Shown here one piece after another: positions 806 through 61,434 of a DNA stretch of 64,000 nt; position 1 is the first letter of the stretch; each line of letters starts with the position of its first letter. The position numbers were made by a program, and so were the translations under genes. Origin of the DNA: an uncultured Rickettsiales bacterium (lineage in GTDB: Bacteria > Pseudomonadota > Alphaproteobacteria > Rickettsiales > CAZNNM01); the NCBI GenBank assembly GCA_964574415.1, contig CAZNNM010000005.1:130132-194131 (forward strand). The letters run 5' to 3'. Below the pieces are notes generated by a model. The model saw nothing but the letters and a program-made list of their open reading frames with translations, searched no databases and had not been told where the DNA came from.

Positions 806-904
806 TGTCATTGCGAGGCCACAACGTGGCCGTGGCAATCCAGGAGCGTATCTCTCTGTCCTTTAAATAGGCCCTGGATCGCCGCGCTTACGCTCGCGAT
901 GACG
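806..904. repeat. MITE-like nested-hairpin intergenic repeat (GTCATYGCGAG...GGCRATCCAGG arms)
   Basis: Left arm is tgtcattgcgaggccacaacgtggccgtggcaatccagg. Right arm is ccctggatcgccgcgcttacgctcgcgatgac. The arms are inverted relative to each other and each is itself a hairpin. Same architecture and a similar central tctctgtc..ttt..aaa segment as 52380-52477. Confidence 0.85.
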
Positions 905-922
905 ATAGATATGTGGGGAAAT

Positions 923-2269
923 ATGGCCTATCATTATGATCTTATCGTTATAGGTGCCGGATCTGGAGGCGTTGCAGCCAGCCGTCGTGCGGCGTCCTAT
1001 GGCGCCAAAGTCGCTATTATAGAAGCCGATCGCGTTGGCGGCACCTGCGTGATTCGAGGCTGCGTTCCCAAGAAATTACTGGTTTATGCATCAGAATATG
1101 CTGAAATCCTGGAAGAATCAAAAGCCTATGGCTGGCAATTCCAAACAGAGCCGCATTTTGACTGGCCTAGCCTGATTGCCAGCAAAGACCGTGAAATTGA
1201 CCGTCTCAACGGCATTTATCTCTCCATGCTCGAAAAAGCCGGCGTCACTCTTATCAAAGGCCATGCCACCATCAAAGATGGCCATACTGTCCAAGTCGGC
1301 CAAAAAGTGCTAACCGCCGAACGCATCCTGCTTGCCCCTGGCAGTATACCCGATATGCCGAGTATCCCTGGCATTGAACATGCCATTTCTTCGAATGAAG
1401 TCTTCTACTTACCAACATTCCCTAAGCATATTGTGATTGTAGGTGGCGGTTATATCGCTGTTGAATTTGCCGGCATATTTAACGGCATGGGCGCAAAAGT
1501 AACCTTGCTTAACCGTGGCGATGCACTGCTGAAGAATTTCGATAAAGAACTCGGCACAAAACTCACCGCCGCCATGCAAGCCAAAGGCGTTGATATCCGT
1601 ATGCGCACCATCCCGACTGCCATTATCAAACATGATGGCGGCCTGGCTGTGACACTCACAGATGATAGCACTTTACATGCCGATCAAGTACTGTACGCCA
1701 TCGGCCGCAAACCCAATACGGACTGGCTCACCGCCCCAATCGAGCGCAGCAAGCGTGGGGCGGTTATAGTAGACGAATGGTCACAAACCTCGATTCCGTC
1801 TATCTATGCTGTAGGCGACGTCACTGAACGCTTGGCGCTCACCCCTGCGGCCATTTATGAGGCACGCGCTTTTGCCGACACCGTCTATGGCAACACCCCA
1901 CGCCCCGTAAACTATACGCTCATCCCCACCGCCGTCTTCAGCCAGCCAGAAGTGGCGACCGTAGGCCTAGGCGAAGAAGAGGCGCGCAAGCGTTATGCTA
2001 AGATAGATGTCTACGCCACGGATTTCCGCCCGATGAAACACGCCATGGGCAATCGCAATGAGCGGTGCTTTATGAAACTGGTCGTGGATGCGGAAAGTGA
2101 TCGCGTTTTAGGCGCGCATATGATAGGAGAACATGCGGGTGAAATGATACAGACCCTAGCAATCGCCCTCACCTGCGGTGTCACCAAAGCACAATGTGAT
2201 GCCACCCTCGCCATCCACCCTACTCTGGCAGAAGAATGGGTTTTAATGCGTGATAAGCGCCAAGTTTAA
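923..2269 (+). CDS. gor: glutathione-disulfide reductase
   Basis: YDLIVIGAGSGGVAASRRAA FAD fold, redox-active GGTCVIRGCVPKK, C-terminal AIHPTLAEE. Start moved to the ATG at 923 because the 785-922 extension runs through the repeat element and is Cys/Trp-rich nonsense. Confidence 0.85.
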   Translation: MAYHYDLIVIGAGSGGVAASRRAASYGAKVAIIEADRVGGTCVIRGCVPKKLLVYASEYAEILEESKAYGWQFQTEPHFDWPSLIASKDREIDRLNGIYLSMLEKAGVTLIKGHATIKDGHTVQVGQKVLTAERILLAPGSIPDMPSIPGIEHAISSNEVFYLPTFPKHIVIVGGGYIAVEFAGIFNGMGAKVTLLNRGDALLKNFDKELGTKLTAAMQAKGVDIRMRTIPTAIIKHDGGLAVTLTDDSTLHADQVLYAIGRKPNTDWLTAPIERSKRGAVIVDEWSQTSIPSIYAVGDVTERLALTPAAIYEARAFADTVYGNTPRPVNYTLIPTAVFSQPEVATVGLGEEEARKRYAKIDVYATDFRPMKHAMGNRNERCFMKLVVDAESDRVLGAHMIGEHAGEMIQTLAIALTCGVTKAQCDATLAIHPTLAEEWVLMRDKRQV

Positions 2270-2312
2270 CACGCTCCATTCTTTATGAACCATTTCCAAA
2301 GATACTACAATC

Positions 2313-2858
2313 ATGGGATGGATGGAATATGCCATGGAAAACAAGGATTTCTTTAACCATCTCGTAGACGATCTTCAAAAGGAAATAGCACAAATGCTAG
2401 ACGCAGCACAAGCGCAGCATTTCTATACGAGCGTTAGCAAATACCTGAATGACTTACAGACGAACGATCCTCGTATTGTCGTTTTACACACCAATCAGCA
2501 ACCGCTTACCGCAAAGCTACAAATCTTAGATGTAGATAGCAGCGTCACAACATTGCCCGATCTTAGAGCCTATAAAGACCTCTGGGCCATACGGATCCGC
2601 AGCCATACCCTCACCGCATTTCCTGATCTTCCAAAGAATGTGCGCCTTCTCGATATCACAGCTCTCAAGACCCTATCTATAGACCATCACAACGTGCCTT
2701 TTGATACAGAATCCGCTATAGGACAAGAGATCATCAAGAAACTCGCGGCTATGCAAACCTCTGGCCGTGGCTTTCTTTTAAAAGCAGACCCTGCCATAAA
2801 AAATGCTGTTGATGCTCAAGCACAACGCAATGTCCAAAGTTTAGGATACGATATCTAA
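2313..2858 (+). CDS. hypothetical protein with 2-3 leucine-rich-repeat-like units
   Basis: ORF of 181 aa. It shows about 22-residue periodicity: LQILDVDSSVTTLPDLRAYKD / LWAIRIRSHTLTAFPDLPKNVR / LLDITALKTLSI. I recognise no other family. Confidence 0.5.
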   Translation: MGWMEYAMENKDFFNHLVDDLQKEIAQMLDAAQAQHFYTSVSKYLNDLQTNDPRIVVLHTNQQPLTAKLQILDVDSSVTTLPDLRAYKDLWAIRIRSHTLTAFPDLPKNVRLLDITALKTLSIDHHNVPFDTESAIGQEIIKKLAAMQTSGRGFLLKADPAIKNAVDAQAQRNVQSLGYDI

Positions 2859-3729: not shown

Positions 3730-6336
3730 ATGAAGTTTGATATTTTTACAGAACGTTCTCGCGAATTGATCCAAGCCGCCCAAAGCCTGGCCGTGGCCAG
3801 AGGGCATCAGCGCTTTACCACCGAACATGTGCTACGTGCGCTTTTGGATGATGAAGAAGGGCTGACAGCCAATCTAATCAACGGTTGCGGGGCCAATCCT
3901 GGTGATATTAGCGACCAGTTAGACATGGCCCTCAAAAAACTCCCCGTCGTACAAGGCGCTGGCGCGGGGCAAATCTACCTGCTACCCGAAACCGCCCGTG
4001 CATTGGAAGAAGCGCAAAACATCGCCAAAAAAGAGCATGATAGTTTCGTCACCGTTGAACGCATTCTGCAAGGTCTTGCTATTCTTGATAAACAACACCC
4101 AACCCCAACGGCTACCATCCTCAATCAAGCAGGCGTAACCCCACAAAAACTCAATGAAGTGATTTCCGCCTTACGCAAGGGCCGCACAGCGCATTCGGCC
4201 ACAGCCGAAAGCCAGATGCAGGCGCTGAAGCGTTACGCTAAGGATATCACCGCCGCTGCGCGTGAAGGCAAGCTTGATCCGGTGATCGGCCGTGATGAAG
4301 AAATCCGCCGTGCGATGCAAGTGCTTTCGCGCCGGACTAAAAATAATCCTGTGCTTATCGGTGAACCAGGTGTCGGCAAAACAGCCATTGTCGAAGGCTT
4401 AGCGCTACGTATGGTGGCAGGCGATGTACCAGAAAATCTCAAAGACAAAAAACTCATGTCCCTTGACCTCGGCGCACTGATTGCTGGCGCCAAATTCCGT
4501 GGGGAATTTGAGGAACGGTTGAAATCCGTGCTATCCGAAGTCAATGCCTCCAATGGCGAGATTATTCTGTTCATCGATGAATTACACACATTAGTAGGCG
4601 CAGGTGCGGCGGAAGGGGCAATGGATGCCTCCAACCTCCTCAAACCCGCTCTAGCACGTGGTGAACTGCATTGCGTGGGCGCAACAACACTTGATGAATA
4701 CCGCAAACATATTGAAAAAGATGCCGCCCTGGCGCGTCGTTTCCAATCGGTGTTTGTGTCTGAGCCAACGGTGGAGGAAACCGTTTCTATTCTCCGTGGC
4801 CTGAAAGAGAAATACGAAGTGCATCATGGTATCCGCATTACCGATAGCGCCCTCGTCTCTGCCGCCACATTATCGCATCGTTATATCACCGACCGCTTCC
4901 TACCGGACAAAGCCATCGATTTGATTGATGAGGCAGCCAGCCGTTTGCGGATGGAAGTGGATAGCAAGCCGGAAGAAGTCGATGAACTCGACCGTAAAAT
5001 CATCCAGCTTAAAATTGAGGCAGAAGCTCTCAAGAAAGAGACGGATAAACCCTCACAAGACCGCCTCGAAAAGCTTACCAAAGAACTATCAGTCCTCGAA
5101 GAAAAATCTGCTGATTTGACCAGCAAATGGCAGGCAGAAAAAGCACGTCTACAAAACGCCCAAAAACTCAAAGAGCAATTAGACAAAGCCCGCAACGAAC
5201 TTGAAATTGCACAGCGCGGTGGAAATCTCGCACGTGCTGGGGAATTAACCTATGGTGTGATCCCAGACTTAGAGAAGAAACTCCAAGACGCCGAAGCCGC
5301 CTCAGGCAGTCGTATGTTGCAAGAAGCCGTGACGGAAGAAGATATCGCCAGCATCGTCTCCCGCTGGACAGGTATCCCTGTCGATAAAATGCTTGCTGGT
5401 GAACGCGAGAAATTGTTGAAGATGGAAGAGCATTTGCGCAGCACCGTCATCGGCCAAGACGATGCACTCCGCGCCATCAGCGATGCTGTCCGCCGCGCCC
5501 GCGCTGGCCTGCAAGATACCGACCGCCCACTCGGCTCCTTCCTGTTCTTAGGCCCGACAGGGGTTGGTAAAACCGAGCTGACCAAGGCATTGGCACAATT
5601 CATGTTTGATGACAAACAAGCCTTGCTGCGGATTGATATGTCAGAATACATGGAAAAGCACGCCGTAGCACGCCTCATCGGCGCGCCTCCAGGCTATGTG
5701 GGCTATGAAGAAGGTGGGACACTGACCGAAGCAGTACGCCGTCGCCCCTATCAGGTGATTCTGTTTGATGAAGTGGAAAAAGCCCATCCGGATGTGTTCA
5801 ACATCCTACTGCAAGTGCTCGATGAAGGTCGTCTCACCGATAGCCAAGGCCGCACGGTAGACTTCCGCAACACCGTTATCATCCTCACCTCCAACCTAGG
5901 TTCGGAAGTGCTTTCTGAGCAGAAAGAAGGCGAGGATAGCAGCCTGGTGCGTGAACAAGTGATGGAAGTCGTCCGCCGTGCTTTCCGCCCTGAGTTCCTC
6001 AACCGCTTGGATGAGATCATCCTCTTCCACCGTTTGGGCCGCAAGCATATGGATGCGATCGTCGATATCCAAATCGCCCGCCTGGCCAAAACCCTGGCAC
6101 CACGCCACATCACCCTACATCTAGACGACAAAGCCCGCACCTGGCTCGCCGAAGCCGGCTTCGACCCCATCTACGGCGCCCGCCCTCTCAAACGCGTTAT
6201 CCAGCGCGAATTGCAGAATAAACTGGCACAGAAGATTCTGGAGGGGAGTGTGAATGATGGGGATGTGGTGGAGGTGAGTGCGAATGAGACGGAGTTGGTG
6301 ATTTCGGTGGGAAGAACCAAAAAAAACGCAGCCTAG
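3730..6336 (+). CDS. clpB: ATP-dependent chaperone/disaggregase ClpB
   Basis: 868 aa with two AAA+ modules ([15 protein letters not shown] and [15 protein letters not shown]), a long coiled-coil middle domain and the Clp N domain. Confidence 0.97.
6184..6336 (+). repeat. direct repeat copy 1 (functional clpB 3' end), partner at 8899-9051
   Basis: Manual codon-by-codon alignment with 8899-9051. The two copies have the same length, and the 68-nt core 6217-6284 is identical to 8932-8999. Confidence 0.9.
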
Positions 6337-6400
6337 CTATTGATTTATATTAATTATCTCTGTACTTAAGAAAATAGTTGTATTTTATATTCATTAAGGT

Positions 6401-6445
6401 ATCATACGCCCATAAAGTTTAATTATTAACTTATGGGCGTATGAT
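6401..6445 (+). promoter_or_regulatory. perfect 15-bp inverted repeat abutting the start codon of the island operon
   Basis: atcatacgcccataa (6401-6415) pairs with ttatgggcgtatgat (6431-6445) across a 15-nt AT loop. The ATG of the next gene is at 6446. Confidence 0.6.
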
Positions 6446-7612
6446 ATGAGCACACAAAAGCACTTTCCCTCTGAATTAACAGAACGTTATACCGAAATAT
6501 TTACCTCACAAACTCAAGATACTCTGGTTTTTTGTGATCCTGGCATTGATGATGCATTAATGCTGGCACAGGTTCTCTCTTCTAAGAAATTGAATGTTCT
6601 TGGTATTGTACCTGGCGCTGGAAATGTTTCTCTTGATAAAACAATCGCTAACACATTGCGTATTGTAGAACTAACAGAACGTACAGATGTTAAAGTATAC
6701 CCAGGATGTAAAGCACCTATCGGCCAAAGCACTGAAAATATGCTTAATGGCGAACAAGTATACGGTGAAGATGGGCTTGGCGGCATTCCATTCAAAGCAC
6801 TTACCACACAAGCACAAACACAAGATGGTGTTGAATTTGCTGCAAATGCTATTCTTACAGCTAAAAAACCTATTACTCTTATTTCCACAGGCGGTTTGAC
6901 CGACGTATATCTCACTCTAGCAAAAATCAAAGAAATCAACCCAGCAGCATTAAAAAATATTGCTGGAATTTCTATTATGGGCGGTGTGTTTGATTATAAA
7001 GCAAATGCCAATGCACCATTACATGTAAATCCAGCAGACCGCGTTGCAGAATTTAATATGATCTTTGATCCTATTGCAACTAAAGGCGTATTCGATATTG
7101 CAGCAGAAGCACATATTACCATCTTGCTTGCTCCATTAGACCTAACCCACACTACCCTCTACCGCAAAGAAAAAGAAACCAAAGCACTTGGCGAAGTTGG
7201 CAACCCTGTTGCTACCGTCATGGCAGATTTGATGATGCAAGTGCCAGTATGGTATGAGGCACGTTTTGGTTTAGCAGATGGCGGTATGCAGCCTGCACAT
7301 GATGTGAATGCAAGCATGGCAATTCTGCACCCCGAGCTTTATACTGGCAGATGGGCCAATGTACGCTCTGTTCTGGATGGGACAGAAGTAGGCAAAACAT
7401 TTGAAGTTGATGGCGGCCCACAAAATGTGTGCATTCTGAATATTCCAGCAGAACGCAACGCAGGCTTCTTTACAGCATTTAATACTGATATGAAAGCATT
7501 TGATGCGCTCAAAGAAAAATCACATCTGCCTTCAGACCATAAGCCCAAAACTGCTCAAGACATTCTTACTCTTGGCAAAGGCAATACTTCTAGCTTTGCT
7601 CAAACACTGTAA
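6446..7612 (+). CDS. inosine-uridine-preferring nucleoside hydrolase (IUNH) family protein, variant motif, C-terminal extension
   Basis: LVFCDPGIDDALML corresponds to DxDxxxDD with the first Asp replaced by Phe. Also GEDGLGG, AEFNMIFDP and QPAHDVN, which align with RihA-type catalytic segments. Confidence 0.8.
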   Translation: MSTQKHFPSELTERYTEIFTSQTQDTLVFCDPGIDDALMLAQVLSSKKLNVLGIVPGAGNVSLDKTIANTLRIVELTERTDVKVYPGCKAPIGQSTENMLNGEQVYGEDGLGGIPFKALTTQAQTQDGVEFAANAILTAKKPITLISTGGLTDVYLTLAKIKEINPAALKNIAGISIMGGVFDYKANANAPLHVNPADRVAEFNMIFDPIATKGVFDIAAEAHITILLAPLDLTHTTLYRKEKETKALGEVGNPVATVMADLMMQVPVWYEARFGLADGGMQPAHDVNASMAILHPELYTGRWANVRSVLDGTEVGKTFEVDGGPQNVCILNIPAERNAGFFTAFNTDMKAFDALKEKSHLPSDHKPKTAQDILTLGKGNTSSFAQTL

Positions 7613-7633
7613 TATTTTTAAAAGGATACTATT

Positions 7634-8767
7634 ATGTCAAGACAACATTATGATTTAGTCATCAGCCTCATTGAAGAAGCAAAACAAGCGTTTATTTCTG
7701 GTGAAGGCACAACACCTGTTGTAGGTGATGTTGAACTTTTTACAAAAGAGGTGGATGGCAAGATCTATAAATTCTTTGGTATTGCGAAAGATAAGCAAGC
7801 CACAACTGATTACACAGCAGTGCGTAGCCATATTCTTCAAGAAATGGGATTAGCACAAGAAACTAGGACATTGCAAATCATTGGCGACTCTGCGCAATAC
7901 AACCCTGAACAATCCAAATTCATGCAGAAGTATTTCAACGAGAAAATGCAAAAATCATCACATGATGATGAATTAGTGATCTATGGTTATACAAGCCGTT
8001 ATAAAGACAACTCATCTGAGAAAACAAAAGGCAGAACAGAAGTAAATGGCTTGGTGAACTACTGGGTTGACCAAAACCCAGAACAAGCTAAACGTGTGCT
8101 AGCAAACGTGGTTTGCTTCCATACACGCCAAGCACTGACAGAAAGTGGCAAAGTTATGTCTGGCTCTACCACCGATAAAGGCTGGGGCTGTGATACATCT
8201 GAACATGTGACCAACTTTTTCCTGGTATATGATACAAAAGGAAAAGGAGCTACATTTGGTGATGACACCATTTCTTCAGATGAATTGACCGATAAATGCT
8301 ATACCTACGAAGGTGGCATCCAATCTTTCCGTCAAGGTGGCTATATGGCAAAACGCGGTAAGGAGCTTAAAGGTGTTTCTGGCCTGCGTGGCGAAAAAAA
8401 TGTTGGCTGTTTTGTTCCGCAAGAAGATGCCTATAGAATATTCTTCTCAGCACCTGAATTCTTTGCTCTTCTGCAAGCGCGTACAGCTGCAAAAGGCTCT
8501 GAGTTAACCCCTGACGAGGTAACCACCATTCGTGATGAATATGTTGCAACAAACTACCAAGATGCACTTGCAGATAAATCACGCCGCGTATTAACAAACC
8601 CACATCGCGATGATGCTGCAACCAAAGATGGCTTATTCAAAGAAGGCTGGGCTGATTTGATGAAAGAGGAGGGCTATAAAGCTGTACAACAACACTTTAA
8701 AGGTAAAACCTTTGAAGAGTTAGTAGCTAAGACGGCGGCTAAAACATCAGCCACACAAAGCCTCTAA
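7634..8767 (+). CDS. hypothetical protein (orphan), co-transcribed with the nucleoside hydrolase
   Basis: 377-aa ORF starting 22 nt after the upstream stop, with an AAGGA Shine-Dalgarno and followed by an intrinsic terminator. No family recognised. There is a weak Rossmann/SLOG-like pattern (ELVIYGYTS ... KCYTYEGGIQSFRQGG). Confidence 0.7.
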   Translation: MSRQHYDLVISLIEEAKQAFISGEGTTPVVGDVELFTKEVDGKIYKFFGIAKDKQATTDYTAVRSHILQEMGLAQETRTLQIIGDSAQYNPEQSKFMQKYFNEKMQKSSHDDELVIYGYTSRYKDNSSEKTKGRTEVNGLVNYWVDQNPEQAKRVLANVVCFHTRQALTESGKVMSGSTTDKGWGCDTSEHVTNFFLVYDTKGKGATFGDDTISSDELTDKCYTYEGGIQSFRQGGYMAKRGKELKGVSGLRGEKNVGCFVPQEDAYRIFFSAPEFFALLQARTAAKGSELTPDEVTTIRDEYVATNYQDALADKSRRVLTNPHRDDAATKDGLFKEGWADLMKEEGYKAVQQHFKGKTFEELVAKTAAKTSATQSL

Positions 8768-8792
8768 TACTCTTTTCTCATTGATGTTAAGG

Positions 8793-8825
8793 AAGCGCTC
8801 AGAAATTTTTCTGAGCGCTTTTTTT
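8793..8825 (+). terminator. rho-independent terminator of the island operon
   Basis: aagcgctcag / ctgagcgctt 10-bp stem, 8-nt loop, followed by a T-run. Confidence 0.8.
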
Positions 8826-8840
8826 ACAGTATACATTCCT

Positions 8841-8870
8841 TCTTATCTTATCTTATCTTATCTTATCTTT
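8841..8870. repeat. pentanucleotide microsatellite (TCTTA)x5 plus degenerate units
   Basis: tctta repeated five times at 8841-8865, then tcttt, tctcc and tcttg. Confidence 0.9.
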
Positions 8871-8898
8871 TCTCCTCTTGCTCAACATACAAAAAATA

Positions 8899-9051
8899 CC
8901 CCTCAAACGCGTTATCCAACGTGAGCTGCAAAATAAACTGGCACAGAAGATTCTGGAGGGGAGTGTGAATGATGGGGATGTGGTGGAGGTGAGTGCGAAG
9001 GAGGCGGGATTGGTGATTGCGGTGAGGAGAACGACGGCGAAGGTGGCGTAA
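8899..9051 (+). pseudogene. orphaned clpB 3' end fragment (last 50 codons plus stop)
   Basis: Translates to [50 protein letters not shown], colinear with the ClpB C-terminus. There is no upstream ORF in frame. Confidence 0.85.
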
Positions 9052-9101
9052 ATTGTCATACACCGACTTGCAGGGGGTAGCATCTCACTCGCACTGAGAT
9101 G

Positions 9102-9494: not shown

Positions 9495-9497
9495 GGT

Positions 9498-11799: not shown

Positions 11800-12020
11800 T
11801 CAGAAGTTAAACAATGTGCGTAAAAATAGCACTCTATATAATGTTTATACTATGTTTCCGTATAAGTAAATCTCTCTCTTATAAGAGGATTCAGCTTTTG
11901 TGTTGGATTGTCACAGATAACACATTTTCAGTTGTGAGCAACGCGAACACCTTGTCGATTCAGGCTCCATTGTGATAGCAACGAAATATATAAGAATAAC
12001 GCTGGAAGCACCAGTCACGA

Positions 12021-12108
12021 TGGATTCCGGATCACATCCGGAATGACAAAGCGTTCGCTAATCGCTCACAATCATTGTGCTGGATTCTAGCCCTCCGCCG
12101 GAATGACA
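12021..12108. repeat. nested-hairpin intergenic repeat units
   Basis: tggattccggatcacatccggaatgaca (12021-12048), then a unit at 12051-12108 that aligns with 23477-23532. Confidence 0.8.
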
Positions 12109-12195
12109 TAAAGTCACCAAACTACATCTTGTGTTTATATCGAGAGAATAGTAAAATATACAGTAACGAGCGGTTGATAATTGAGGTGGATTGCT

Positions 12196-12735: not shown

Positions 12736-12736
12736 T

Positions 12737-15236: not shown

Positions 15237-15324
15237 TGTCATACGCCGACTTGATCGGCGTATCCATCCTTAAACTATAGCTTTATATTTTAGATGGATT
15301 CACCGATCAAGTCGGTGAATGACA
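15237..15324. repeat. MITE-like nested-hairpin repeat
   Basis: tgtcatacgccgacttgatcggcgtatccatcc ... agatggattcaccgatcaagtcggtgaatgaca. The termini are inverted and each is a hairpin. Confidence 0.85.
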
Positions 15325-18205: not shown

Positions 18206-18246
18206 AATATCCCTCTTCTCTTTTTTATTCCAGTACCCATTGCTCT

Positions 18247-18276
18247 TGTCATCCTTGGATCAAGCCCAAGGAGACA
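18247..18276. repeat. single hairpin unit of the intergenic repeat family
   Basis: tgtcatccttggatcaagcccaaggagaca. Confidence 0.75.
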
Positions 18277-18288
18277 CTATCGTGAATT

Positions 18289-19545
18289 CTAATAAAAACG
18301 GTCTATGGTTAACCCCGTCAAATCAATGCCTGGTGTTTTGCCTTCGATAATATCGGCTACAATATACGCACTCCCCGCCGCCAGCGTCCAGCCGAGTGAG
18401 CCATGGCCCGTGTTGAGTACTAAATTCCGGTATGGCGTATTGCCCAAAATCGGCATACCATCCGGCACATAAGGCCGCAAACACGCCCAGCGTGTCACTT
18501 CCTGCATATTGCCACAGCCTGGGAAGAATATTTGCGTTGCACGCAGGAGCGGCTCTACCCGGTCTTCCCGCACATCGTAATTATACCCGTTTAATTCCGC
18601 CGTACCTGCTACACGCAAGCGGTTACCCAAACGGCTGTACACAATCTTGAGCGCCTGATCCGTTACCCCTACGCGCGGTGCCGCCGTATCATCTTCAATC
18701 GGAATAGAAATACTATAGCCTTTCACCGGATAAATCGATGTCGGCATATCGAGCTTCTTAAGCCATAATGGGCTATCCGCACCCAGCGCCATCACATAAT
18801 GATCGGCTGTAAACGTGCCATGATTGGTCACCACACCGCTGATTTTATCACCGTCAGTGTGAATGACTTCAATAGAGGTATTATAGGAGAACGTCACATT
18901 CTCCATCGCCTGGCATTCCGCTGCCAAGCCCTGCGTAAAGGCAAAAATATCACCTGTACCATCATAAGGAAAAAACACACCACCGGCGAGCAATTCTGCT
19001 GATTGCTTAAAGGCCGGTTCTTTCGCTACCACCTGCTCACGGTTTAAAAGCTCAAACGGGCATCCTAATTCGGACTGGAATTTCGCATGAGCAAGCGCTG
19101 CATAGAGGCTTTTTTCATCACGGTAAATATGCAAGATACCTTGATCCAAATAATCAAACAGCGATTCGGTTTGCTGCTCCAACTCACGGAATGATTCCCG
19201 CGCATAAAGCGCCAAACGCAACATTGCACGTGTGCCGGCTTCATTGCGTGTATGGGTGCAATGGCGTAAGAACTGCCATCCCCATTTCCACATATCCGGA
19301 TCATAGCGCATACGGAATACCAGCGGTGCATCAGCACGGCCAATCCATTTCAGCAAATTGGGAATCACATGCGGGCTTGCCCACGGTTCGGCATGGCTAT
19401 AGCTCAACTGCCCACCATTGGCAAAACTACACTCACGGCCACTTTCCGGCTGACGATCCAACACCGTCACCTCATAACCGCGACGCGCTAAAACATATGC
19501 AAGCGTGGTGCCAATAACACCAGAACCAAGAATCAGAATCTTCAT
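18289..19545 (-). CDS. dadA: FAD-dependent D-amino-acid dehydrogenase-like oxidoreductase
   Basis: MKILILGSGVIGTTLAYVLARRGYEVTVLDR dinucleotide fold with DAO-family length and motifs. Start moved to the ATG at 19545, since the longer ORF crosses a repeat. Confidence 0.8.
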   Translation of the reverse strand: MKILILGSGVIGTTLAYVLARRGYEVTVLDRQPESGRECSFANGGQLSYSHAEPWASPHVIPNLLKWIGRADAPLVFRMRYDPDMWKWGWQFLRHCTHTRNEAGTRAMLRLALYARESFRELEQQTESLFDYLDQGILHIYRDEKSLYAALAHAKFQSELGCPFELLNREQVVAKEPAFKQSAELLAGGVFFPYDGTGDIFAFTQGLAAECQAMENVTFSYNTSIEVIHTDGDKISGVVTNHGTFTADHYVMALGADSPLWLKKLDMPTSIYPVKGYSISIPIEDDTAAPRVGVTDQALKIVYSRLGNRLRVAGTAELNGYNYDVREDRVEPLLRATQIFFPGCGNMQEVTRWACLRPYVPDGMPILGNTPYRNLVLNTGHGSLGWTLAAGSAYIVADIIEGKTPGIDLTGLTIDRFY

Positions 19546-19614
19546 ATTGTATCGTTTGTGAGAGTTATTAAGGGTAGTATAGCGAGGATTGGAGAGAATG
19601 TCACTGGAAAGGAT

Positions 19615-19674
19615 GCAGGATTCAGCATTCAGGATCCAGAGTTTCTTCTCTGAATCCCGGATCCTGAATCCTGC
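19615..19674. repeat. inverted repeat of GGATCC/GAATCCT-type units
   Basis: gcaggattcagcattcaggatcc ... ggatcctgaatcctgc. Related to 46284-46323. Confidence 0.75.
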
Positions 19675-19758
19675 CCTCTGCACTATAAAAACACTTGCGA
19701 ACTGCCCCCAACACAGGCAGTATACACAATGGTACACTTATAAGTAATCGAGCCCATT

Positions 19759-23350: not shown

Positions 23351-23578
23351 CCGCCATTGCGAGGAACTCGCCTTGTCATTCTTAGACGTGATCAGGATTG
23401 TTGCAAGATTCTAAAATACCCTGTCATCCCAGCGAAAGCTGGGATCCAGTCCTTTTAAACATTAAAGCAAAATATAGCGTTCACTAACGTTCACAAGCAT
23501 TACGCTGGATTCCAGCCTTCGCTGGAATGACGAAAAAGATAGTCAGACAACAACACCGACTTGATCCAAGGATGACCG
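23351..23578. repeat. pile-up of several nested-hairpin repeat units
   Basis: Units at 23351-23411, 23422-23532 (tgtcatcccagcgaaagctgggatccag ... ctggattccagccttcgctggaatgacg) and 23554-23578. Confidence 0.85.
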
Positions 23579-37469: not shown

Positions 37470-37478
37470 GTTGCCTTC

Positions 37479-38315
37479 TCATAAATGCTCAACTGGTGCT
37501 AAGAACGTTACGCGCTCCCGTAGTGCCTGAGCAATTTTACTACGGTGGCAATGGCATACATCCGCCTCAAAACACGTAATCGCAATACGTTGTTTGGTAG
37601 TCAGCATTGCTTCTAATAGATCAAGCTTTGCTTGTTGGTTTGGTAGTACAGTATGTGTATAATCTTTAAATAAAATCTCATAATCACTATCACTCTGTAA
37701 ATTTTGCCGTTTATCCGAAGCGATCCCTAGTTCGGGTATATGGTAATATTCAATGCCTACTTCTGGTAATAAACTCGCCAATTCGGATTTGGAGAATCCA
37801 AATTTTTTGCTGATGGGATTTTTGCGTACATCACACAGCGCTTTGACATCGTATTCTATGAGTGTATTGATATATTGCTCTTGGCTTAGCCCCTCATAAC
37901 CTATGGTGTAAAACACGGTATCATTACGTGTGAGTGAGGTATGCTTAGTATAGTAGGGGTAATGTGCTGTAATGCGCGATAGCAACTCATGTTGCGATGC
38001 TCCAGAGAGCTGACTCTTGATCTTCTGAATAGCCATTTTCTCGAAGAAATCCAGATCAACCGCATAACGTTTTCCATGTTCCACGGTTATCCAATCATTA
38101 CCCTCAGTACATAAATTCTTATGCGTCAAATAGCGCTTGTCCTCTTCCGCCTGCAAGGAACGTGGGCCAGAGTGGGTAGGAATAAAATGGTAGTAGTGGT
38201 TATGTTCTGAAAATTCGTAACAGAATAAGAACAGGTATAAGGGAAGTTTCTCGGCTTCCACCGCCCCACCCAACTCCTGTATTAATGCCAATAGTATCTT
38301 CATCCGGTAAATCAT
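37479..38315 (-). CDS. DUF488 domain protein with an unrecognised N-terminal domain of about 130 aa
   Basis: The C-terminal half, FYTIGYEGLSQEQYINTLIEYDVKALCDVRKNPISKKFGFSK...GIEYYHIPELG, fits DUF488. Confidence 0.65.
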   Translation of the reverse strand: MIYRMKILLALIQELGGAVEAEKLPLYLFLFCYEFSEHNHYYHFIPTHSGPRSLQAEEDKRYLTHKNLCTEGNDWITVEHGKRYAVDLDFFEKMAIQKIKSQLSGASQHELLSRITAHYPYYTKHTSLTRNDTVFYTIGYEGLSQEQYINTLIEYDVKALCDVRKNPISKKFGFSKSELASLLPEVGIEYYHIPELGIASDKRQNLQSDSDYEILFKDYTHTVLPNQQAKLDLLEAMLTTKQRIAITCFEADVCHCHRSKIAQALRERVTFLAPVEHL

Positions 38316-46283: not shown

Positions 46284-46323
46284 ATTCGGGATCCAGTCCA
46301 GGATTCACCTCTGGATCCCGAAT
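46284..46323. repeat. 13-bp perfect hairpin of the GGATCC-type repeat between convergent rnhA and hemF
   Basis: attcgggatccag / ctggatcccgaat, followed by gaatcctgaatgccgaatcct units. Confidence 0.75.
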
Positions 46324-47188: not shown

Positions 47189-47278
47189 GATGGGAACTCC
47201 TTGATAAGGAATTTATAGAGGATTTTGGGGGGAGTGGCAAGTAAGGTAAAGAATTGGGGCTGACTCATTTTGAATTTT

Positions 47279-47493
47279 TGTCATCCCGGACTTGGCAGCT
47301 CGATGAAATCAAGAGCGGGATCCACTGTTATGGTGGCGTGATTGCTAACAATCTCGTTGGAAGCACCAGTCTTGGTGGATTCCGGATCAAGTCCGGAATG
47401 ACAATGAAAATACTGTCATTCGCCAACTTGATCAGCATCGCTGTAGACTATTCGTCATTGCGAAGCCACATAGTGGCCATGGCAATCCAGGGG
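47279..47493. repeat. three adjacent nested-hairpin repeat units
   Basis: 47279-47403 is a full unit that aligns with 58730-58836 but has an 18-nt insertion in the left hairpin. 47414-47440 is degenerate. 47453-47493 is a GTCATTGCGAAGCC...GGCAATCCAGG arm. Confidence 0.85.
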
Positions 47494-47523
47494 CGAGACT
47501 CTCCACCTCACGACCGCTCGCAA

Positions 47524-48810
47524 TTAAGCCGTCAGCTTCTTCACCACTGCATCCAGTGACAATTCTTCTTTCTCACCGGTCTTGCGATTCTTCAACTCCA
47601 CAATCCCATTCGCCGCCCCACGCGGACCGATGGCTGCGTGCCATGGCGTGCCAATCAAATCTTGTGTCGCAAACTTGCTACCTGCACTCTCGCGAGTATC
47701 ATCGTAAAGCACTTCCACACCCGCTTTTTGCAGTTTGGTATAAAGCTCTTCACACAGTTTCTCGCATTCTTCTGCGCCACTCTTCAAATTCAGCACGGCC
47801 ACTTTAAATGGCGCGACGGATTCCGGCCAAATAATCCCATCCTCATCATGATGCGCTTCGATAATCGCACCCACTAGGCGGGATACACCGATACCATAAG
47901 CACCCATCTCCACCGTCACTTGCTTGCCTTCGCTATCCAGCACGGTCGCGCCTAATGCTTCGGAATATTTCGTGCCGAAATAGAAAACATGCCCAACCTC
48001 AATACCGCGCTTCTTACGCAAACGTTCCGCAGGCACTGGACAGTTAGCAGGATCATGCAATTCATCCGCCGCCGCATAGAGTGAATGCAGCTTGTCGATA
48101 TCGACATGCGGTGCATCCATCAGCTCTTCAAAGGCTGCATCGTAATACACATCGCTCTCGCCCGTCTCAGCAATAATCTGGAATTCATGGCTCAAATTCC
48201 CACCAATCGGGCCGGTTTCAGCACGTACTGGAATTGCTGTTAAGCCCATACGTTTGAAGGTATTGAGGTATGCCTCATACATAATATCGTAGGATTTCTT
48301 AGCACCCTCATAATCCAAGTCAAAACTATACGCATCCTTCATCAAAAACTCGCGACCACGCATCACACCGAAACGCGGACGGATTTCGTCGCGGAACTTC
48401 CATTGGATATGGTAAAGATTCATTGGCAGATTCTTGTAGCTTTTGACGTTCTTGCGGAACAGATCGGTGATCACTTCCTCATTGGTCGGGCCAAAGAGCA
48501 ACTCATGTTCATGGCGGTCTTCGATGCGGAGCATCTCTTTGCCATAAGCATCATAACGGCCAGATTCTTTCCATAATTCAGCCGGCTGAATGCATGGCAT
48601 CAACAGCTCAATCGCGCCGGCTTTGTTCATCTCTTCACGCACAATCTGCTCAATATTGCGCAGCACTTTTAAGCCCAATGGCAGCCAGTTATACAGGCCA
48701 GAGCTTAACTGGCGCACCAAGCCTGCACGGAGCATTAAACGATGTGAAGCAATCGTAGCTTCAGAAGGAGTTTCTTTTAAGATCGGCAAAAAATAACGCG
48801 ATAGACGCAT
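47524..48810 (-). CDS. proS: prolyl-tRNA synthetase (short form lacking the insertion editing domain)
   Basis: [18 protein letters not shown]..., class II motifs [17 protein letters not shown] and [10 protein letters not shown]. 428 aa. Confidence 0.93.
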
Positions 48811-48870: not shown

Positions 48871-48946
48871 AGATGGATCCTTGGGTCAAGCCCAAGGATG
48901 ACAACACATACTCTGTCATTCTCGGACTTGATCCGAGAATCCATCC
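48871..48946. repeat. two back-to-back hairpin units of the intergenic repeat family
   Basis: agatggatccttgggtcaagcccaaggatgaca and tgtcattctcggacttgatccgagaatccatcc. Confidence 0.85.
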
Positions 48947-50983: not shown

Positions 50984-51919
50984 CTATAGCTCCGGCCTAA
51001 AATCTATCTGAATTTCATGCCAGCCATTTGCACCTTCATATTTTTCTGGAGGCGGCAAATATTTAAGTGGGCTACAGACTTTCACTGCACGTAATGCGCT
51101 AGCAACAAATGCCGCATAGAATGGATCATTCCCAAAACTCGCCACAGGAGCCGCCCTAACATTAATGACATCACCCTGTTTTGTCAGCTGCACCGTAATA
51201 GGGACATACATCTGGCTCACATCACGCCCACCCGCATTATACGACCAACAACTCTTAAATTGACCTGCAATCGCATCTTTCTCCGTTGTACTCAGCGGAA
51301 TACCCGCATCATAATTTTGATCCGATTTATTGCTTTGAACAGCTTGATTCTTGTCCTCTAGCTTTTCTTCTTTAGCCTGCTGTTCTGCTTTTTCACTAAG
51401 ATCGCGCTCTAACGCTTCCCAGGCATCCTCAGCAGAGGCATCCTTTTTTGGCTCAGGCTTCTTAGGCTCTACCTTTTTAGGCTCTGGTTTTGGAGGTTGA
51501 GGCTTAGGCGGTTCAGGCTTCTTAGGTTCCGGCTTAGGCTCCTCTTTTTTCGGCTCTGGCTTTTTCTCTTCTACTTTCTCTACCACATCTTCTTTTGGCT
51601 TCGGAGGAGGCGGAGGCGGAGTTTCGTCTTTTATTTCGGGTTTTTTAGGCTCCGGTTTTGGAGGTTGAGGTTTAGGAGGCTCTGGTTTCTTTGGTTCAGG
51701 CTTTTTAGGTTCTGGTTTCTGAGGTGCAGGCTTAGGTGTAGGCTTCTGGGTCACAGTCGCAGGCTTAACATTTGTAACCGATGATACCGGCAACAACTCC
51801 ACCGTCACAATATTCTCCGGCGGTAATTCCTCAAAGAAGGATGGTATGCCGAAATAGCTTATGATAAGCACGGCTAAATGCAGGAGCACTGAATAAATAA
51901 TGCCGCGCTTTAAGGTCAC
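50984..51919 (-). CDS. tolA: Tol-Pal system protein TolA
   Basis: N-terminal TM segment, long Pro/Lys/Glu-rich domain II (KPEPKKPEPPKPQPPKPEPKK occurs twice), C-terminal TolA domain III. Lies downstream of tolQR. Confidence 0.8.
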   Translation of the reverse strand: MTLKRGIIYSVLLHLAVLIISYFGIPSFFEELPPENIVTVELLPVSSVTNVKPATVTQKPTPKPAPQKPEPKKPEPKKPEPPKPQPPKPEPKKPEIKDETPPPPPPKPKEDVVEKVEEKKPEPKKEEPKPEPKKPEPPKPQPPKPEPKKVEPKKPEPKKDASAEDAWEALERDLSEKAEQQAKEEKLEDKNQAVQSNKSDQNYDAGIPLSTTEKDAIAGQFKSCWSYNAGGRDVSQMYVPITVQLTKQGDVINVRAAPVASFGNDPFYAAFVASALRAVKVCSPLKYLPPPEKYEGANGWHEIQIDFRPEL

Positions 51920-52379: not shown

Positions 52380-52477
52380 CGTCATCGCGAGCGTAGCGTG
52401 GCGATCCAGGGGTAACAGTCTCTGTCTTTCAAAGCTGCCCTGGATTGCCACGGCCATTTTATGGCCTCGCAATGACA
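52380..52477. repeat. MITE-like nested-hairpin repeat inside the tolQ-tolR intercistronic spacer
   Basis: cgtcatcgcgagcgtagcgtggcgatccagg ... ccctggattgccacggccattttatggcctcgcaatgac. It occupies 98 of the 127 nt between tolQ and tolR. Confidence 0.9.
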
Positions 52478-55376: not shown

Positions 55377-55432
55377 TCTTTGCTATTTCTTATTGTGACA
55401 TAACCCGTTATTCATCAAAAATGACGCTCTCA

Positions 55433-55537
55433 TATCATTCTTGGACGTGATCGGCATTATTGTTTCGTCATTCCAGCGGAGGCTGGAATGACGTTTTTTA
55501 GAGCCATGAACAACACCGACGTGATCGGTGAATGACA
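55433..55537. repeat. several hairpin units of the intergenic repeat family
   Basis: atcattcttggacgtgatcggcatt, cgtcattccagcggaggctggaatgacg (55466-55493) and caccgacgtgatcggtgaatgaca. Confidence 0.8.
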
Positions 55538-55563
55538 GAGCAAGCGTCACGCCCCACTCTCCC

Positions 55564-57508: not shown

Positions 57509-57543
57509 CTATCCACCGAAAATGTGGATAACTATGTGCATAA
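57509..57543. promoter_or_regulatory. cluster of DnaA-box-like 9-mers
   Basis: CTATCCACC (57509-57517, 2 mismatches), TGTGGATAA (57523-57531, perfect reverse complement of TTATCCACA), TGTGCATAA (57535-57543, 1 mismatch). A further TGTGTATAA lies at 57722-57730. Confidence 0.35.
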
Positions 57544-57863
57544 GGATGGGAATATGACATCGGCCAGTTGGAATTTAGAGATAATTACCGTTTTGCCTAA
57601 AAAATAGGCACATATATAATGCACTGATATATAGCAATAATTTTTGTTCTATCCCAGGTAGAATAAAAAAATCGTGGTATTTTGAGAGGTTATAAATAGC
57701 CGTAAAAATGACTTTGAACGCTGTGTATAAAATCTCATGAAATTGCAGTGATTTGAGATTTTCTTCTTACATATCCGGTAAAACTATACTACAGTTTACT
57801 GTATAGTATTATAGATGACTTATCGATTTTTTATATGAGTATCCCAGAAGGAGTATCCGGCCC

Positions 57864-58649: not shown

Positions 58650-58729
58650 GAGATTATGGCCTCAGCCAATACGTTATTTGTCATAGGCCAACGTAATCAG
58701 GGTTGTTGCAAGGCTCTATAACTGATTGC

Positions 58730-58836
58730 TGTCATCACGGACTTGATCCGGGATCCACTGTTATGGTAGCGCCACTTATAAGAATTAAGCCTTTAGCGCC
58801 AGTCTAGGTGGATTCCGGATCAAGTCCGGAATGACA
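58730..58836. repeat. complete MITE-like unit (107 bp) with palindromic terminal inverted repeats of about 29 bp
   Basis: tgtcatcacggacttgatccgggatccac ... gtggattccggatcaagtccggaatgaca. Aligns with 47279-47403 and with the right end at 12003-12048. Confidence 0.9.
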
Positions 58837-58883: not shown

Positions 58884-60152
58884 TTACTTCACCACCGTCA
58901 CCCCGCCCATATACGGACGCAGCACTTCCGGCACAACCACCGAACCATCCACCTGCTGGTAATTCTCCAGAATCGCCACCATTGTCCGGCCAATCGCTAA
59001 GGCTGAACCGTTGAGCGTATGCACAAAGCGTGTATTCTTTTCTCCCTCAGGGCGATAGCGCGCCTTCATGCGGCGGGCTTGGAAATCCCCACAATTCGAG
59101 CAACTCGAAATCTCGCGATACATGTTCTGACCCGGTAACCATACTTCCAAGTCATAGGTCTTCTGCGATGAGAAGCCCATATCACCGCTGCATAGCAACA
59201 TTACACGATAGGGCAAACCAAGCTTCTGCAACACCTTCTCCGCGCACGCCGTCATCCGCTCATGCTCAGCTTGCGATTCTTCCGGCGTGGTGATAGTTAC
59301 CAGCTCAACTTTGGTAAATTGGTGCTGACGGATCATCCCACGCGTATCCCGCCCTGCAGAGCCAGCCTCTGAGCGGAAACACGGTGTATACGCGGTATAG
59401 CGGAATGGTAGCGCCACATCTTCCACAATCGCATCTGCCACCATATTAGTAAGCGGCACTTCAGCCGTTGGAATCAAACGGTATTCATTGGTAGTCTGGA
59501 ACGAATCCTCCGCAAATTTCGGCAATTGCCCCACACCATACATCGCATTATCACGCACCAGGAAGGGCGGCACGATTTCGGTATAGCCGTGTTCAGCCGT
59601 ATGCATATCCAGCATAAACTGCGCCAGCGCACGCTCCATGCGCGCCAGCGGCCCTTTGAGCATCACGAAACGTGAGCCAGAAATCTTAGCAGCCTGCTCA
59701 AAATCCATATAACCCAGCGCTTCACCAAGGTCAAAATGCTGTTTTGGCGCAAAACTGAACGATGGAATCTCGCCCCATTTGCGCACTTCCTTATTGCCTG
59801 TTTCATCCAAACCAAGCGGCACATCATCCGCCGGAATATTCGGGATCGCCGCCAGCACTTTCGATAATTCATCATTATCATCACTGATGCTTTCCAATTC
59901 CGCCAATTGCTGCTTAATCACCTGCGCATCTTGCTTAGCGCGCTCAAACTCGGCACTGGCTTTATCTTTAATCGCGCCCATGGCTTTAGCGGTATCATTA
60001 CGCTTTTGCTGTAATTCCTGTATCTGCGTAATCCGGCTGCGGCGGCCCTCATCCAACTCCAAAATCTGGCGAGATAGCGGCTCTAGCCCACGTTTCTTTA
60101 AACCTGCATCAAAAGCTTCAGGATGTTCACGGATCCATTTTATATCATGCAT
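58884..60152 (-). CDS. serS: seryl-tRNA synthetase
   Basis: [14 protein letters not shown]..., coiled-coil arm, class II motifs [21 protein letters not shown] and [18 protein letters not shown]. The ATG at 60152 is preferred. Confidence 0.95.
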
Positions 60153-60930
60153 GGTTTTCTCGCTGTTGTTTGGTTTTCTCAATACGTTTGCACGCTAATA
60201 CCGATATTTCGTAAAGCAGAAGCATAGGGAAGGCAAGCCCTAACTGGCTGACCACATCCGGCGGAGTTAGAATCGCCGCGATAATAAAAATCCCCACAAT
60301 CGCATAGCGCCGTTTTTTGGCCAGACCCTGCGCAGATACAAGCCCAACACGCGTCAGCAATGTCAGCAATACGGGCAGCTGGAATGCAATACCAAATCCC
60401 ATAATAAGCTGCATCACCAGCGATAAATACTCACTCACCCGCGCCTCAAGCTGAATCGGCACGCCAGTATCTGCGCCCATACTCTCAAATCCTAGGAAGA
60501 ATCGCCACGCCAGTGGGAAAATAAAGTAATAGGCCAGCGCTGCCCCCATCAAAAATAATACTGGTGTTGCTACTAAGAACGGTAACAAGAAATGCTTCTC
60601 ACGCTTATAAAGCCCAGGCGCCATAAAAGAATAAATCTGCCAGGCCAGAAACGGGAAGGACACAAACGCAGCCGCAAAGAAGGAGACTTTCAAATAGGTA
60701 AAAAATGCTTCCGCCAGGCCGGTGTAAATCAAACGGCGGTTGGTTTCACCATGGTAAATATCGGCAAGTGGCTGCACAAGAAAAGCATAGATATGCTCAG
60801 CCCCCAGATAACATATCCCAAACACCAGCAAAAACACCGCGCAAGACCACATCAACCGGCGGCGTAGCTCGACTAGATGTTCTTGCAGCGTAAGATGCTT
60901 ATCATTGAGGGTTTCGGCTGTATTATTCAT
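60145..60930 (-). CDS. tatC: twin-arginine translocase subunit TatC
   Basis: [17 protein letters not shown]..., six TM segments, PPDVVSQ. Confidence 0.92.
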
Positions 60931-61234
60931 GAGGCGGCTTCTTCATCATATCCGAAATATCGTAGGTCTCTTGTAACTGGCCCTCTTGATCAACGATATA
61001 GCGCATTTTATCATTAATGGCCTTGGCTTCTTTTTCAAGCTCTGCTTTGGTATCGGATAATTCGGTTTCATCAAGCAATGCCGTAATTTGCCCGCCTACT
61101 TCTTGCTTGAACGCACGCAGTTTCTTCATACCTTGTTTACCCGCACGGATAAGCGGCGGCAAATCTTGTGGGCCGATAACCAATAATGCGACGATGATAA
61201 TAACGGCTAATTCCGCCCAGGATAAACCGAACAT
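60923..61234 (-). CDS. tatB: twin-arginine translocase TatA/TatB-family protein (TatB-like)
   Basis: MFGLSWAELAVIIIVALLVIGPQDLPPLIR followed by an amphipathic helix. 103 aa. Overlaps the tatC start. Confidence 0.75.
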   Translation of the reverse strand: MFGLSWAELAVIIIVALLVIGPQDLPPLIRAGKQGMKKLRAFKQEVGGQITALLDETELSDTKAELEKEAKAINDKMRYIVDQEGQLQETYDISDMMKKPPHE

Positions 61235-61327
61235 GATTCCAACATCCTTTCGATGGGTATCGTAGCAGCTTCTTAGCAGGATGCAATGGGGTTGTGCTCA
61301 AGAGGCGGACGCAATGTGCAATACTCT

Positions 61328-61434
61328 TGCCATTCTTGGACTTGATCCAAGAATCCATCTAAAACATAACACCCTTCTACGCATATGTTTGCTGTATTAT
61401 TGCCATGGATCCTTGGACCAAGCCCAAGGAGACA
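61328..61434. repeat. MITE-like nested-hairpin repeat (107 bp)
   Basis: tgccattcttggacttgatccaagaatccatc ... atggatccttggaccaagcccaaggagaca. Confidence 0.85.

Follow-up and report, generated by a model that had tools for sequence, protein, structure and literature searches.

Repetitive extragenic palindromes (REPs) tagged with GTAG, such as the REPs and bacterial interspersed mosaic elements of Escherichia coli (GTAG-3, with RayT/YafM) and the REPINs of Pseudomonas (GTAG-1, with Group 3 REP-associated tyrosine transposases, RAYTs), are short hairpins that lie between genes in inverted pairs, without target-site duplications. In the accepted model a RAYT, as an HUH/Y1 transposase, binds hairpin and tag on single-stranded DNA and copies the REPs in trans; single-strand transposition of the IS200/IS605 type likewise leaves no target-site duplications. 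A second super-family, the CGTC-tagged REPs of Di Nocera et al. 2013 (PMC3733652), is described as having a terminal CGTC, often TGTC (CCTC also occurs as a variant), an 8-9 bp stem starting from A-T/T-A and an unpaired tail, CCA; the loop measures 4 nt in family 1 and 5 nt in families 2-4. Head-to-head dimers (tags outside) predominate over rare tail-to-tail dimers (tags inside), spacers are 20-100 nt, and the units are intergenic, mainly between unidirectional and convergent open reading frames (ORFs), predominantly in alphaproteobacteria (PMC3733652). CGTC-1 of Neisseria is dRS3, and CGTC-1 and CGTC-4 of R. conorii are the Rickettsia palindromic elements RPE-6 and RPE-4 (PMC3733652). The 64,000-nt stretch analysed here (‘the window’), from contig CAZNNM010000005.1 of an uncultured Rickettsiales bacterium, carries about 25 intergenic hairpin units, which are probably CGTC-tagged REPs and may be copied in trans as single-stranded DNA hairpins. 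The repeat class is already described and widespread, and this case is a well-characterised example of it rather than anything specific to the window.

An initial annotation, made from the letters of the window, had placed TGTCAT…ATCCA hairpins at 14 loci. At twelve of these the hairpins fit the scheme [C/T]GTC–AT-stem–loop–stem-AT–CCA, while the other two (19615-19674 and 46284-46323) hold palindromes of a separate, untagged family. The proposed flanks are present, although both ‘AT’ dinucleotides are in fact the first two stem pairs, and the true unpaired flanks are [C/T]GTC and CCA. Three kinds of unit could be distinguished, all sharing one foot: an unpaired [C/T]GTC tag, first pairs A-T and T-A, and an unpaired CCA tail. 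Tags were TGTC or CGTC in all intact units and TGCC or TATC in decayed ones. Roughly 15-20 of the ~25 copies were recognisable, the remainder being decayed (at 9053, 12081, 23351, 23373, 23546, 47427, 55432, 55505 and 58678). The CTTGA kind (for example at 15237, 15295, 47376, 48874, 48914, 58730, 58809 and 61328) has an 8-9 bp stem and a 5-nt CTTGA loop, with TGTGA in its place in unit 12021; the 4-nt-loop kind (23422, 23506 and 55466) has an 8-bp stem, ATYCCAGC, and a GRAR loop (GAAA, GAAG or GGAG). Stems in these two kinds are thus 8 or 9 bp, always with the AT...AT start. The GCGAG kind is two-tier: above a base of ATYGC come an internal loop and then an apical hairpin whose length varies; it keeps the AT start, but its basal stem is only 5 bp. 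Its five units, 806-842(+), 875-904(-), 47453-47490(+), 52380-52409(+) and 52441-52477(-), correspond to the longer-arm subfamily recognised initially.

Measured against CGTC-1 to CGTC-4 (PMC3733652), the window units share tag, stem start, loop sizes, CCA tail, dimer style, intergenic placement and the lack of a flanking transposase gene. A loop of 4 or 5 nt is not found in the GCGAG kind, nor in 47279-47325, which has an 18-nt loop insertion. Many Rickettsia palindromic elements are in-frame insertions inside genes, whereas all copies in this window are intergenic. RPE-4 and RPE-6 are nevertheless the same class of tagged hairpin in an alphaproteobacterial host (PMC3733652). Neisseria dRS3 has the architecture of the 4-nt-loop kind (CGTC-ATTCCAGC-GAAG-GCTGGAAT-CCA here, against ATTCCCGCGCAGGCGGGAATC) and occurs, as here, in inverted pairs <130 bp apart; its stem reads CCCGC where the window has CCAGC, and Neisseria has a linked Group 2 RAYT. 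Pairs of ATTCCCGCGCAGGCGGGAATC have been treated as REPINs of that RAYT by Bertels & Rainey (bioRxiv 10.1101/2021.07.10.451892), the link resting on REPIN decay in N. gonorrhoeae, in which the RAYT is frameshifted. The arrangement in that REPIN-RAYT system, inverted REPs within ~130 bp that can form one long hairpin, is found in seven window dimers. The E. coli and Pseudomonas REPs resemble the window units in their short tagged hairpins, inverted pairs, intergenic position and absence of target-site duplications, but carry the tag GTAG rather than CGTC, and their RAYT is flanked by cognate REPs.

Under a strict definition (a [CT]GTC tag; a perfect stem, >=8 bp long, with AT as its start; 3-7 nt of loop; and CCA), the window has nine units, and each of 300 dinucleotide-preserving shuffles gave none. 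They lie at 12021-48(-), 15237-66(+), 15295-324(-), 23422-48(+), 23506-32(-), 47376-403(-), 48874-903(-), 48914-43(+) and 58809-36(-); CCA follows the stem in 9/9 of them, as in 5/5 units of the GCGAG kind. A covariance model (R1), of the sort the initial annotation had advised, was built on 23 distinct units of 30 nt (20 came from other genomes) and recovered 15 units in the window at E<=0.011, rising to 20 at E<0.25; all of these are at listed loci (best E 6e-17). A weak R1 match at 57525-57559 (E 0.095) was read and dismissed as looking like chance. Only two 28-mers in the window, at 47376 and 58809, are identical.

The same hairpin recurs far outside this organism. A pattern scan of 185,579 species genomes (TGTCAT-N(3-6)-GACTTGATC-N(3-6)-ATCCA) gave at least 116 loci, with ~70 matches expected by chance across the whole collection (by arithmetic from 19 fixed bases, 16 gap combinations, two strands and 596 Gb). 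Tag and loop were fixed by the search pattern; complementarity was not fixed, and the free stem bases were perfectly complementary in 122/133 pattern matches among those listed. Over the 23 distinct units of 30 nt, pairing holds in 99% of cells, 5/5 free stem positions change on both sides, and the covariation score lay above all 500 shuffles and all slid controls. The hairpin structure is constrained and the stem sequence free, which bears out the initial remark that pairing is preserved where stems differ.

Record titles among the matches listed name a dozen or more phyla, many of them for metagenome bins, for which individual assignments may err; PMC3733652 gives five. The titles include Alpha-, Beta-, Gamma- and Deltaproteobacteria, Nitrospirota, Campylobacterota, Bacteroidota/Ignavibacteria, Acidobacteriota, Chloroflexota, Planctomycetota (among them the complete genome of Ca. 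Uabimicrobium amorphum), Elusimicrobia, Omnitrophota, Zixibacteria, Saccharibacteria and Nomurabacteria, and one match is in a Rickettsia endosymbiont. Foreign loci with the CTTGA kind also hold the 4-nt-loop kind (e.g. TGTCATTCCCGCGAAAGCGGGAATCCA) and the GCGAG kind, and the three kinds therefore form one super-family. Constancy of the foot with free stems across phyla points to a protein that reads the foot, rather than to a generic stabilising hairpin.

Some of these foreign matches have features of their own. A predicted viral contig, IMGVR_UViG_3300037044_000272 (L140/L141, 18.6 kb), with Mu-like Gp36, Gp37 and major capsid protein E, holds nine CTTGA-loop CGTC units between its genes, and 36 viral contig stretches in all match the pattern; CGTC REPs thus occur also in (pro)phage DNA, a possible route between hosts. 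In an Azospirillaceae bin (L054, 2588-2987), four CGTC units recur at an exact 124-nt period, and in a Terriglobia bin (L038, 3279-4369) five units share the same 12-nt tail at irregular spacing; both sets are tandem arrays of unit plus flank, not dispersed copies.

Arrangement in the window follows the published pattern. Using the dimer terms of PMC3733652, there are seven head-to-head dimers (806-904, 15237-15324, 23422-23532, 47279-47403, 52380-52477, 58730-58836 and 61328-61434), one tail-to-tail dimer and one tandem pair (12021-12108). The head-to-head dimers measure 88-125 bp with their units 28-70 nt apart, and each can fold as two hairpins or as one long one (z -4.7 to -11.6), in keeping with the initial description of complete units with inverted hairpins at their ends. 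Dimers of the same kind have sequence in common just inside the hairpins and diverged centres. In the two GCGAG dimers, spacer orientation is constant and the long-apex and short-apex units are swapped between sides. Two doubly tagged hairpins, 18247-76 and 55466-93, would be head-to-head dimers that have lost everything between equivalent points of their two units, and similar deletions are noted in Wolbachia dimers (PMC3733652). Target-site duplications were found in 0/8 dimers (flank matches of 0-1 nt, as by chance), and the two doubly tagged hairpins showed flank matches of 2-3 nt, also at chance level. No T-run followed the hairpins (0-5 T within 12 nt past each unit, on either strand), and the units therefore lack the combination of G+C-rich hairpin and T-run of an intrinsic (Rho-independent) terminator.

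Empty and filled sites, a comparison called for at the outset, could be examined in a sister species (SRR21902430-32, five Logan contigs, ~82% nucleotide identity). Two sites were empty: 12 nt in the sister stand against 83 nt in the window (18206-18288, hairpin 18247 included; a 71-bp stretch is missing), and 23 nt against 216 nt in the window (11900-12115, which includes 11957-12108). Elsewhere REPs are found in both species, downstream of trmB, rodA and uvrC and upstream of hemF, with kinds or stems that differ. Upstream of hisS the flanks are conserved between species and the stem differs at four paired positions; the left unit at 58730 is conserved in the sister, with a perfect stem there and one mismatch in the window. 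The repeats turn over between sister species. Assembly breaks tell of their abundance: a Logan contig of the same organism (L001, SRR9674365; 12.6 kb at 100% identity) stops at 47289, within a unit of dimer 47279-47403, and six sister-contig ends fall inside units, four found by R1 and two of the GCGAG kind read by eye. Contigs ending in units is the behaviour of high-copy repeats in short-read assemblies, and supports a family that reaches well beyond the window. A synteny break was also seen. In the sister, uvrC and nadK come after DUF488, and the junction holds a REP cluster (L123, 9834-10052), while in the window DUF488 adjoins a DJ-1 gene (37470-37480) and uvrC lies 17 kb off beside its own REP cluster (55377-55563); gene orders differ, and the end of the rearrangement therefore coincides with a REP cluster.

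How such repeats are best explained depends on which of these properties a given account can accommodate. That they are unrelated chance palindromes or low-complexity sequence, an outcome that the initial annotation had named as a refutation, is so improbable as to need little discussion: only 2/14 loci (19615-74 and 46284-323) fall outside the family, and the nine strict units absent from 300 shuffles, the covariation, R1 matches down to E 6e-17 and flanks shared beyond the hairpins all speak for one related, structured family. The label ‘MITE-like’ given initially (miniature inverted-repeat transposable element) did not survive either. Classical MITEs would be deletion derivatives of insertion sequences (IS) with a DDE transposase and palindromic terminal inverted repeats, and bacterial examples such as the Correia elements of Neisseria and QMITE1/2 of Coxiella are, like the 88-125 bp units here, short, non-coding and intergenic with inverted ends, and have a high copy number that the units here probably share. 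MITEs, however, have fixed IS-related terminal repeats and direct target duplications (7-11 nt direct repeats in QMITE2 of Coxiella; PMC5896051), neither of which is seen in the window units. Each ‘end’ is instead an autonomous hairpin that also occurs alone, in tandem and tail-to-tail; spacers vary in sequence and length, and two dimers share spacer orientation with their end units swapped; and the same 28-30 nt hairpin is found in genomes labelled with many phyla, in unrelated surroundings. No IS is present in the window. An origin as classical MITEs is accordingly most unlikely, and a main role as landing sites for site-specific elements (IS110/IS1111-family IS or filamentous prophages) is scarcely less so. 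dRS3 is known as a prophage integration site, and a GTAG REP is an IS1111 target in Coxiella. Such a role has been reported for REPs of Pseudomonas, Neisseria and Sinorhizobium, and REPs do serve as IS targets (PMC3733652), but no IS or prophage is inserted in any window unit, and service as a target leaves both copy number and conserved foot unexplained; it would follow from the existence of the repeats rather than give rise to them.

A more serious alternative is that the hairpins are kept mainly as host RNA elements at transcript 3′ ends, acting as mRNA stabilisers, RNase sites or weak terminators, with the compensatory changes reflecting host-level selection on RNA structure; it is compatible with mobility and competes only as the main reason for the repeats. 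Roles in mRNA stabilisation, RNase processing or weak termination have been proposed for E. coli REPs. Most copies in the window do lie downstream of genes, between convergent or unidirectional ORFs, pairing is strongly preserved, unit 58730 is conserved at the orthologous sister site, and Di Nocera et al. argue likewise (PMC3733652). Yet the units face either way and are for the most part in symmetric dimers, one cluster sits in the divergent mreB/fliL promoter region, no T-run follows the hairpins, an Rfam 15 scan of the whole window gave 0 matches at gathering score, and tag and tail stay unpaired and invariant across phyla while stems are free. Many window copies, moreover, are decayed, and at the same intergenic positions the sister has empty sites or another REP kind; decay and turnover therefore speak against the idea that the chief force is selection by the host on every single copy, and an RNA function of this sort is improbable as the principal explanation. 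The initial suggestion of selection on structure holds for which copies look intact, but not as a constraint on every copy, many being decayed and their sites turning over; such decay and turnover are better matched by selection for elements that can be copied than by an RNA structure maintained by the host.

Copying as a REP thus remains the preferred reading. The units would be non-autonomous, copied in trans as single-stranded DNA hairpins by an HUH/Y1-type enzyme, putatively single-copy and encoded elsewhere in the genome, that may read the invariant foot and need only a pairing stem. An enzyme reading only foot and pairing would explain how stems differ freely and yet remain complementary. 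Copies would later decay through point mutation, loop insertions and loss of the dimer centre, the last giving doubly tagged hairpins. This mechanism is favoured because of the invariant unpaired foot with free paired stems, the lack of target duplications (a property the window dimers share with IS200/IS605-type transposition) and the dimer architecture; it is tentatively the most likely of the mechanisms, by inference from these features. A step further, that CGTC REPs including the GCGAG kind are propagated by a trans-acting enzyme other than an E. coli- or Pseudomonas-type RAYT, is possible though rather doubtful.

The enzyme was sought in several ways. None of the ~55 annotated ORFs of the window is a transposase, and the cognate RAYT anticipated by the initial annotation was not found there. 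By tblastn, E. coli RayT gave no RayT-like match in the window or in loci L001-L124 (best E 0.41 and 0.96), and ORFs overlapping those matches showed no HUH/Y1 motif by eye. RAYT flanks were surveyed with an E. coli RayT sequence (99% identical to P0135; NCBIfam REP_Tyr_transpos at 4.6e-53, no Pfam match): from 150 diverse relatives, 46 of them aligned, 80 metagenomic E. coli-type loci (234 kb) were fetched. As a positive control, GTAG/CTAC-tagged hairpins stood beside the RAYT gene in at least 14/80 loci. Only one canonical CGTC unit occurred in the 234 kb, at a RAYT whose immediate flanks are GTAG hairpins. CGTC REPs are thus not the elements that bracket RAYT genes of the E. coli type; other RAYT groups, IS200/IS605 and the Neisseria RAYT lay outside this sample.

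Several of these observations weigh against the preferred reading. CGTC hairpins were immediate RAYT flanks in 0/80 metagenomic E. coli-type RAYT loci, and no protein family recurs beside the hairpin in 116 foreign loci among the matches listed (all-against-all clustering of 4,266 ORFs; no family in >8 loci). Di Nocera et al. likewise found no transposase gene flanked by CGTC units (PMC3733652). The two-tier GCGAG kind falls outside the published stem and loop numbers, while the CTTGA units, by their 5-nt loop, would belong among CGTC-2, -3 and -4 (PMC3733652). Finally, dimers are ~70-75% identical outside the hairpins; the window copies have thus diverged a fair amount, and could be relics rather than elements that are active now.

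Individual loci illustrate the range from intact to decayed. The dimer 806-904 pairs a long-apex GCGAG unit, 806-842(+) (TGTC-ATTGC-GAG-GGCCAC..GTGGCC-GTG-GCAAT-CCAGG; R1 E 2e-4), with a short-apex one, 875-904(-) (CGTC-ATCGCGAGCGTAAGCGCGGCGAT-CCAGG), which lies upstream of the true gor start. At 9053-9075(+) only the tag and left arm of a CTTGA-kind unit (TTGTCATACACCGACTTGCAGGG) persist, a fragment as originally described. The stretch 11957-12048(+) is a decayed head-to-head dimer of the 47279/58730 type, of which the right unit, 12021-12048(-), is intact (TGTC-ATTCCGGA-TGTGA-TCCGGAAT-CCA). In tandem with it stands a 4-nt-loop-kind unit with a conserved 30-nt inner flank, 12049-12108(-) (R1 E 9e-4), whose hairpin, 12081-12108, has decayed; 12049-12112 and 23470-23536 are identical at 52/63 aligned positions (~83%), as expected from the ~57-bp unit reported initially as shared. 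The CTTGA dimer 15237-15324(+), between convergent genes, has 9-bp stems (ATACGCCGA / ATTCACCGA) and a 28-nt spacer (z -11.6). A single hairpin at 18247-18276(+), TGTCAT-CCTTGG-ATCAAGC-CCAAGG-AGACA, is tagged at both ends. Between the convergent rodA and a dsbA-like gene, the cluster 23351-23578(+) comprises a decayed GCGAG unit (23351-72), a decayed unit with a TTGTTG tail (23373-23405), a 4-nt-loop head-to-head dimer with GAAA and GAAG loops (23422-48(+) and 23506-32(-)) and a further decayed unit, 23546-78(-).

In the second half of the window, the CTTGA dimer 47279-47403(+) joins the left unit with the loop insertion, 47279-47325, to a perfect right unit, 47376-47403(-), and is followed at 47427-47490(+) by a decayed CTTGA unit (47427-52) and the single GCGAG unit 47453-47490. 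In the tail-to-tail dimer 48874-48943(+) the tags lie inside, 10 nt apart, between 48874-903(-) (stem ATCCTTGGG) and 48914-43(+) (stem ATTCTCGGA). The GCGAG dimer 52380-52477(+), in the tolR/tolQ gap, has its short apex at 52380-409(+) and its long apex at 52441-77(-). At the uvrC 3′ end, the cluster 55432-55537(+) holds a decayed unit (55432-62), the doubly tagged 4-nt-loop hairpin 55466-93 (CGTC-ATTCCAGC-GGAG-GCTGGAAT-GACG) and a variant with a TTGTTC tail, 55505-37(-). A decayed unit with a TTGTTG tail, 58678-58710(+), lies just beyond the range noted initially for the CTTGA dimer 58730-58836(+), in which 58730-57(+) has one stem mismatch and 58809-36(-) is perfect (z -8.1). The CTTGA-kind dimer 61328-61434(+) has slightly decayed tags, TGCC at 61328-57 and TGTCTC at 61406-34(-).

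The untagged palindromes at 19615-19674 and 46284-46323 (z -4.9 and -6.1) are rich in GGATTC/GGATCC and form the second palindrome family; one is in the divergent promoter region of dadA and mreD and the other between convergent genes. Hairpins also occur at both of these intergenic positions in the sister species, alike in their motifs and different in sequence. Two other identities were considered for the REP units and set aside: a resemblance to tRNA, in which the reverse strand (GGATCAAGTCC) is like a T-arm and CCA like the tRNA 3′ end, was rejected because these features are on opposite strands, and CRISPR because the spacing is irregular. A tRNA/tmRNA scan of the whole window found none, and literature searches by sequence strings returned primers only.

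The window has a G+C content of 48% and is rich in housekeeping genes (argB, gor, clpB, mreBCD, fliLM, metK, dadA-like, PBP2/rodA, a chemotaxis operon, groESL, hemF, hisS, tolQRAB, uvrC, serS and tatC). Its GroEL has its best named relatives, at ~80-83% identity, in records titled ‘Alphaproteobacteria bacterium’ and ‘Rickettsiales bacterium’; an alphaproteobacterial host, from the group in which CGTC REPs predominate, fits the identity of the units as REPs. Maximal ORFs cover 90% of the window, leaving ~10% non-coding, and the repeats occupy roughly 1/5 of the intergenic DNA. Every CGTC-type unit lies outside real genes, as had been claimed, and flanking genes are unidirectional or convergent (convergent, for instance, at 15237-15324 and 23351-23578, again as claimed) at every unit site except the divergent mreB/fliL spacer. 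Apparent exceptions come from gene models: ORF 47254-47559 is spurious, lying entirely on a repeat cluster with no family match, glutathione-reductase models begin at residue 47-50 of ORF 785-2269 (gor), and the DAO domain begins at residue 66 of ORF 18289-19737 (dadA-like). The gor and dadA N-terminal extensions are artefacts, since these ORFs run through repeats or palindromes, and the false extensions flagged initially are thereby explained.

Two features of the window are separate from the repeats. A 2.6-kb segment (6318-8898) has a G+C content of 40%, against 48-51% around it, and holds two genes, one for a nucleoside hydrolase (6446-7612) and one unknown (7634-8767), with clpB on one side and a doc toxin gene on the other (window 6184-9032). 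On either side stand direct repeats of 134 bp that correspond to the clpB 3′ end (6184-6317 and 8899-9032, 121/134 identical), and in the sister species doc directly follows clpB without the segment; 6184-9032 has the look of an acquired island whose insertion duplicated the clpB end. Tandem repeats of 15 nt, seven copies in two blocks, lie at 51444-51733(-) inside ORF 50984-51919, which stands between tolR and the ORF upstream of tolB and has no Pfam match; they are presumably the repetitive linker of TolA.

For annotation, the practical consequences of these repeats are spurious ORFs, false N-terminal extensions such as that of gor, and short-read assemblies that break inside units. The negative result at E. 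coli-type RAYT flanks sharpens the question of which protein copies CGTC REPs, to which the window otherwise adds nothing. If the units are indeed copied in trans by an enzyme other than an E. coli- or Pseudomonas-type RAYT, recurrence of the foot with freely covarying stems over a dozen or more phyla, candidate-phyla-radiation bacteria among them, and in a Mu-like phage contig, would be the sign of a machinery that is widely conserved or moves horizontally; this organism, with three kinds of unit at high density, and its sister species, with empty and filled sites, would then make a good system in which to find it.

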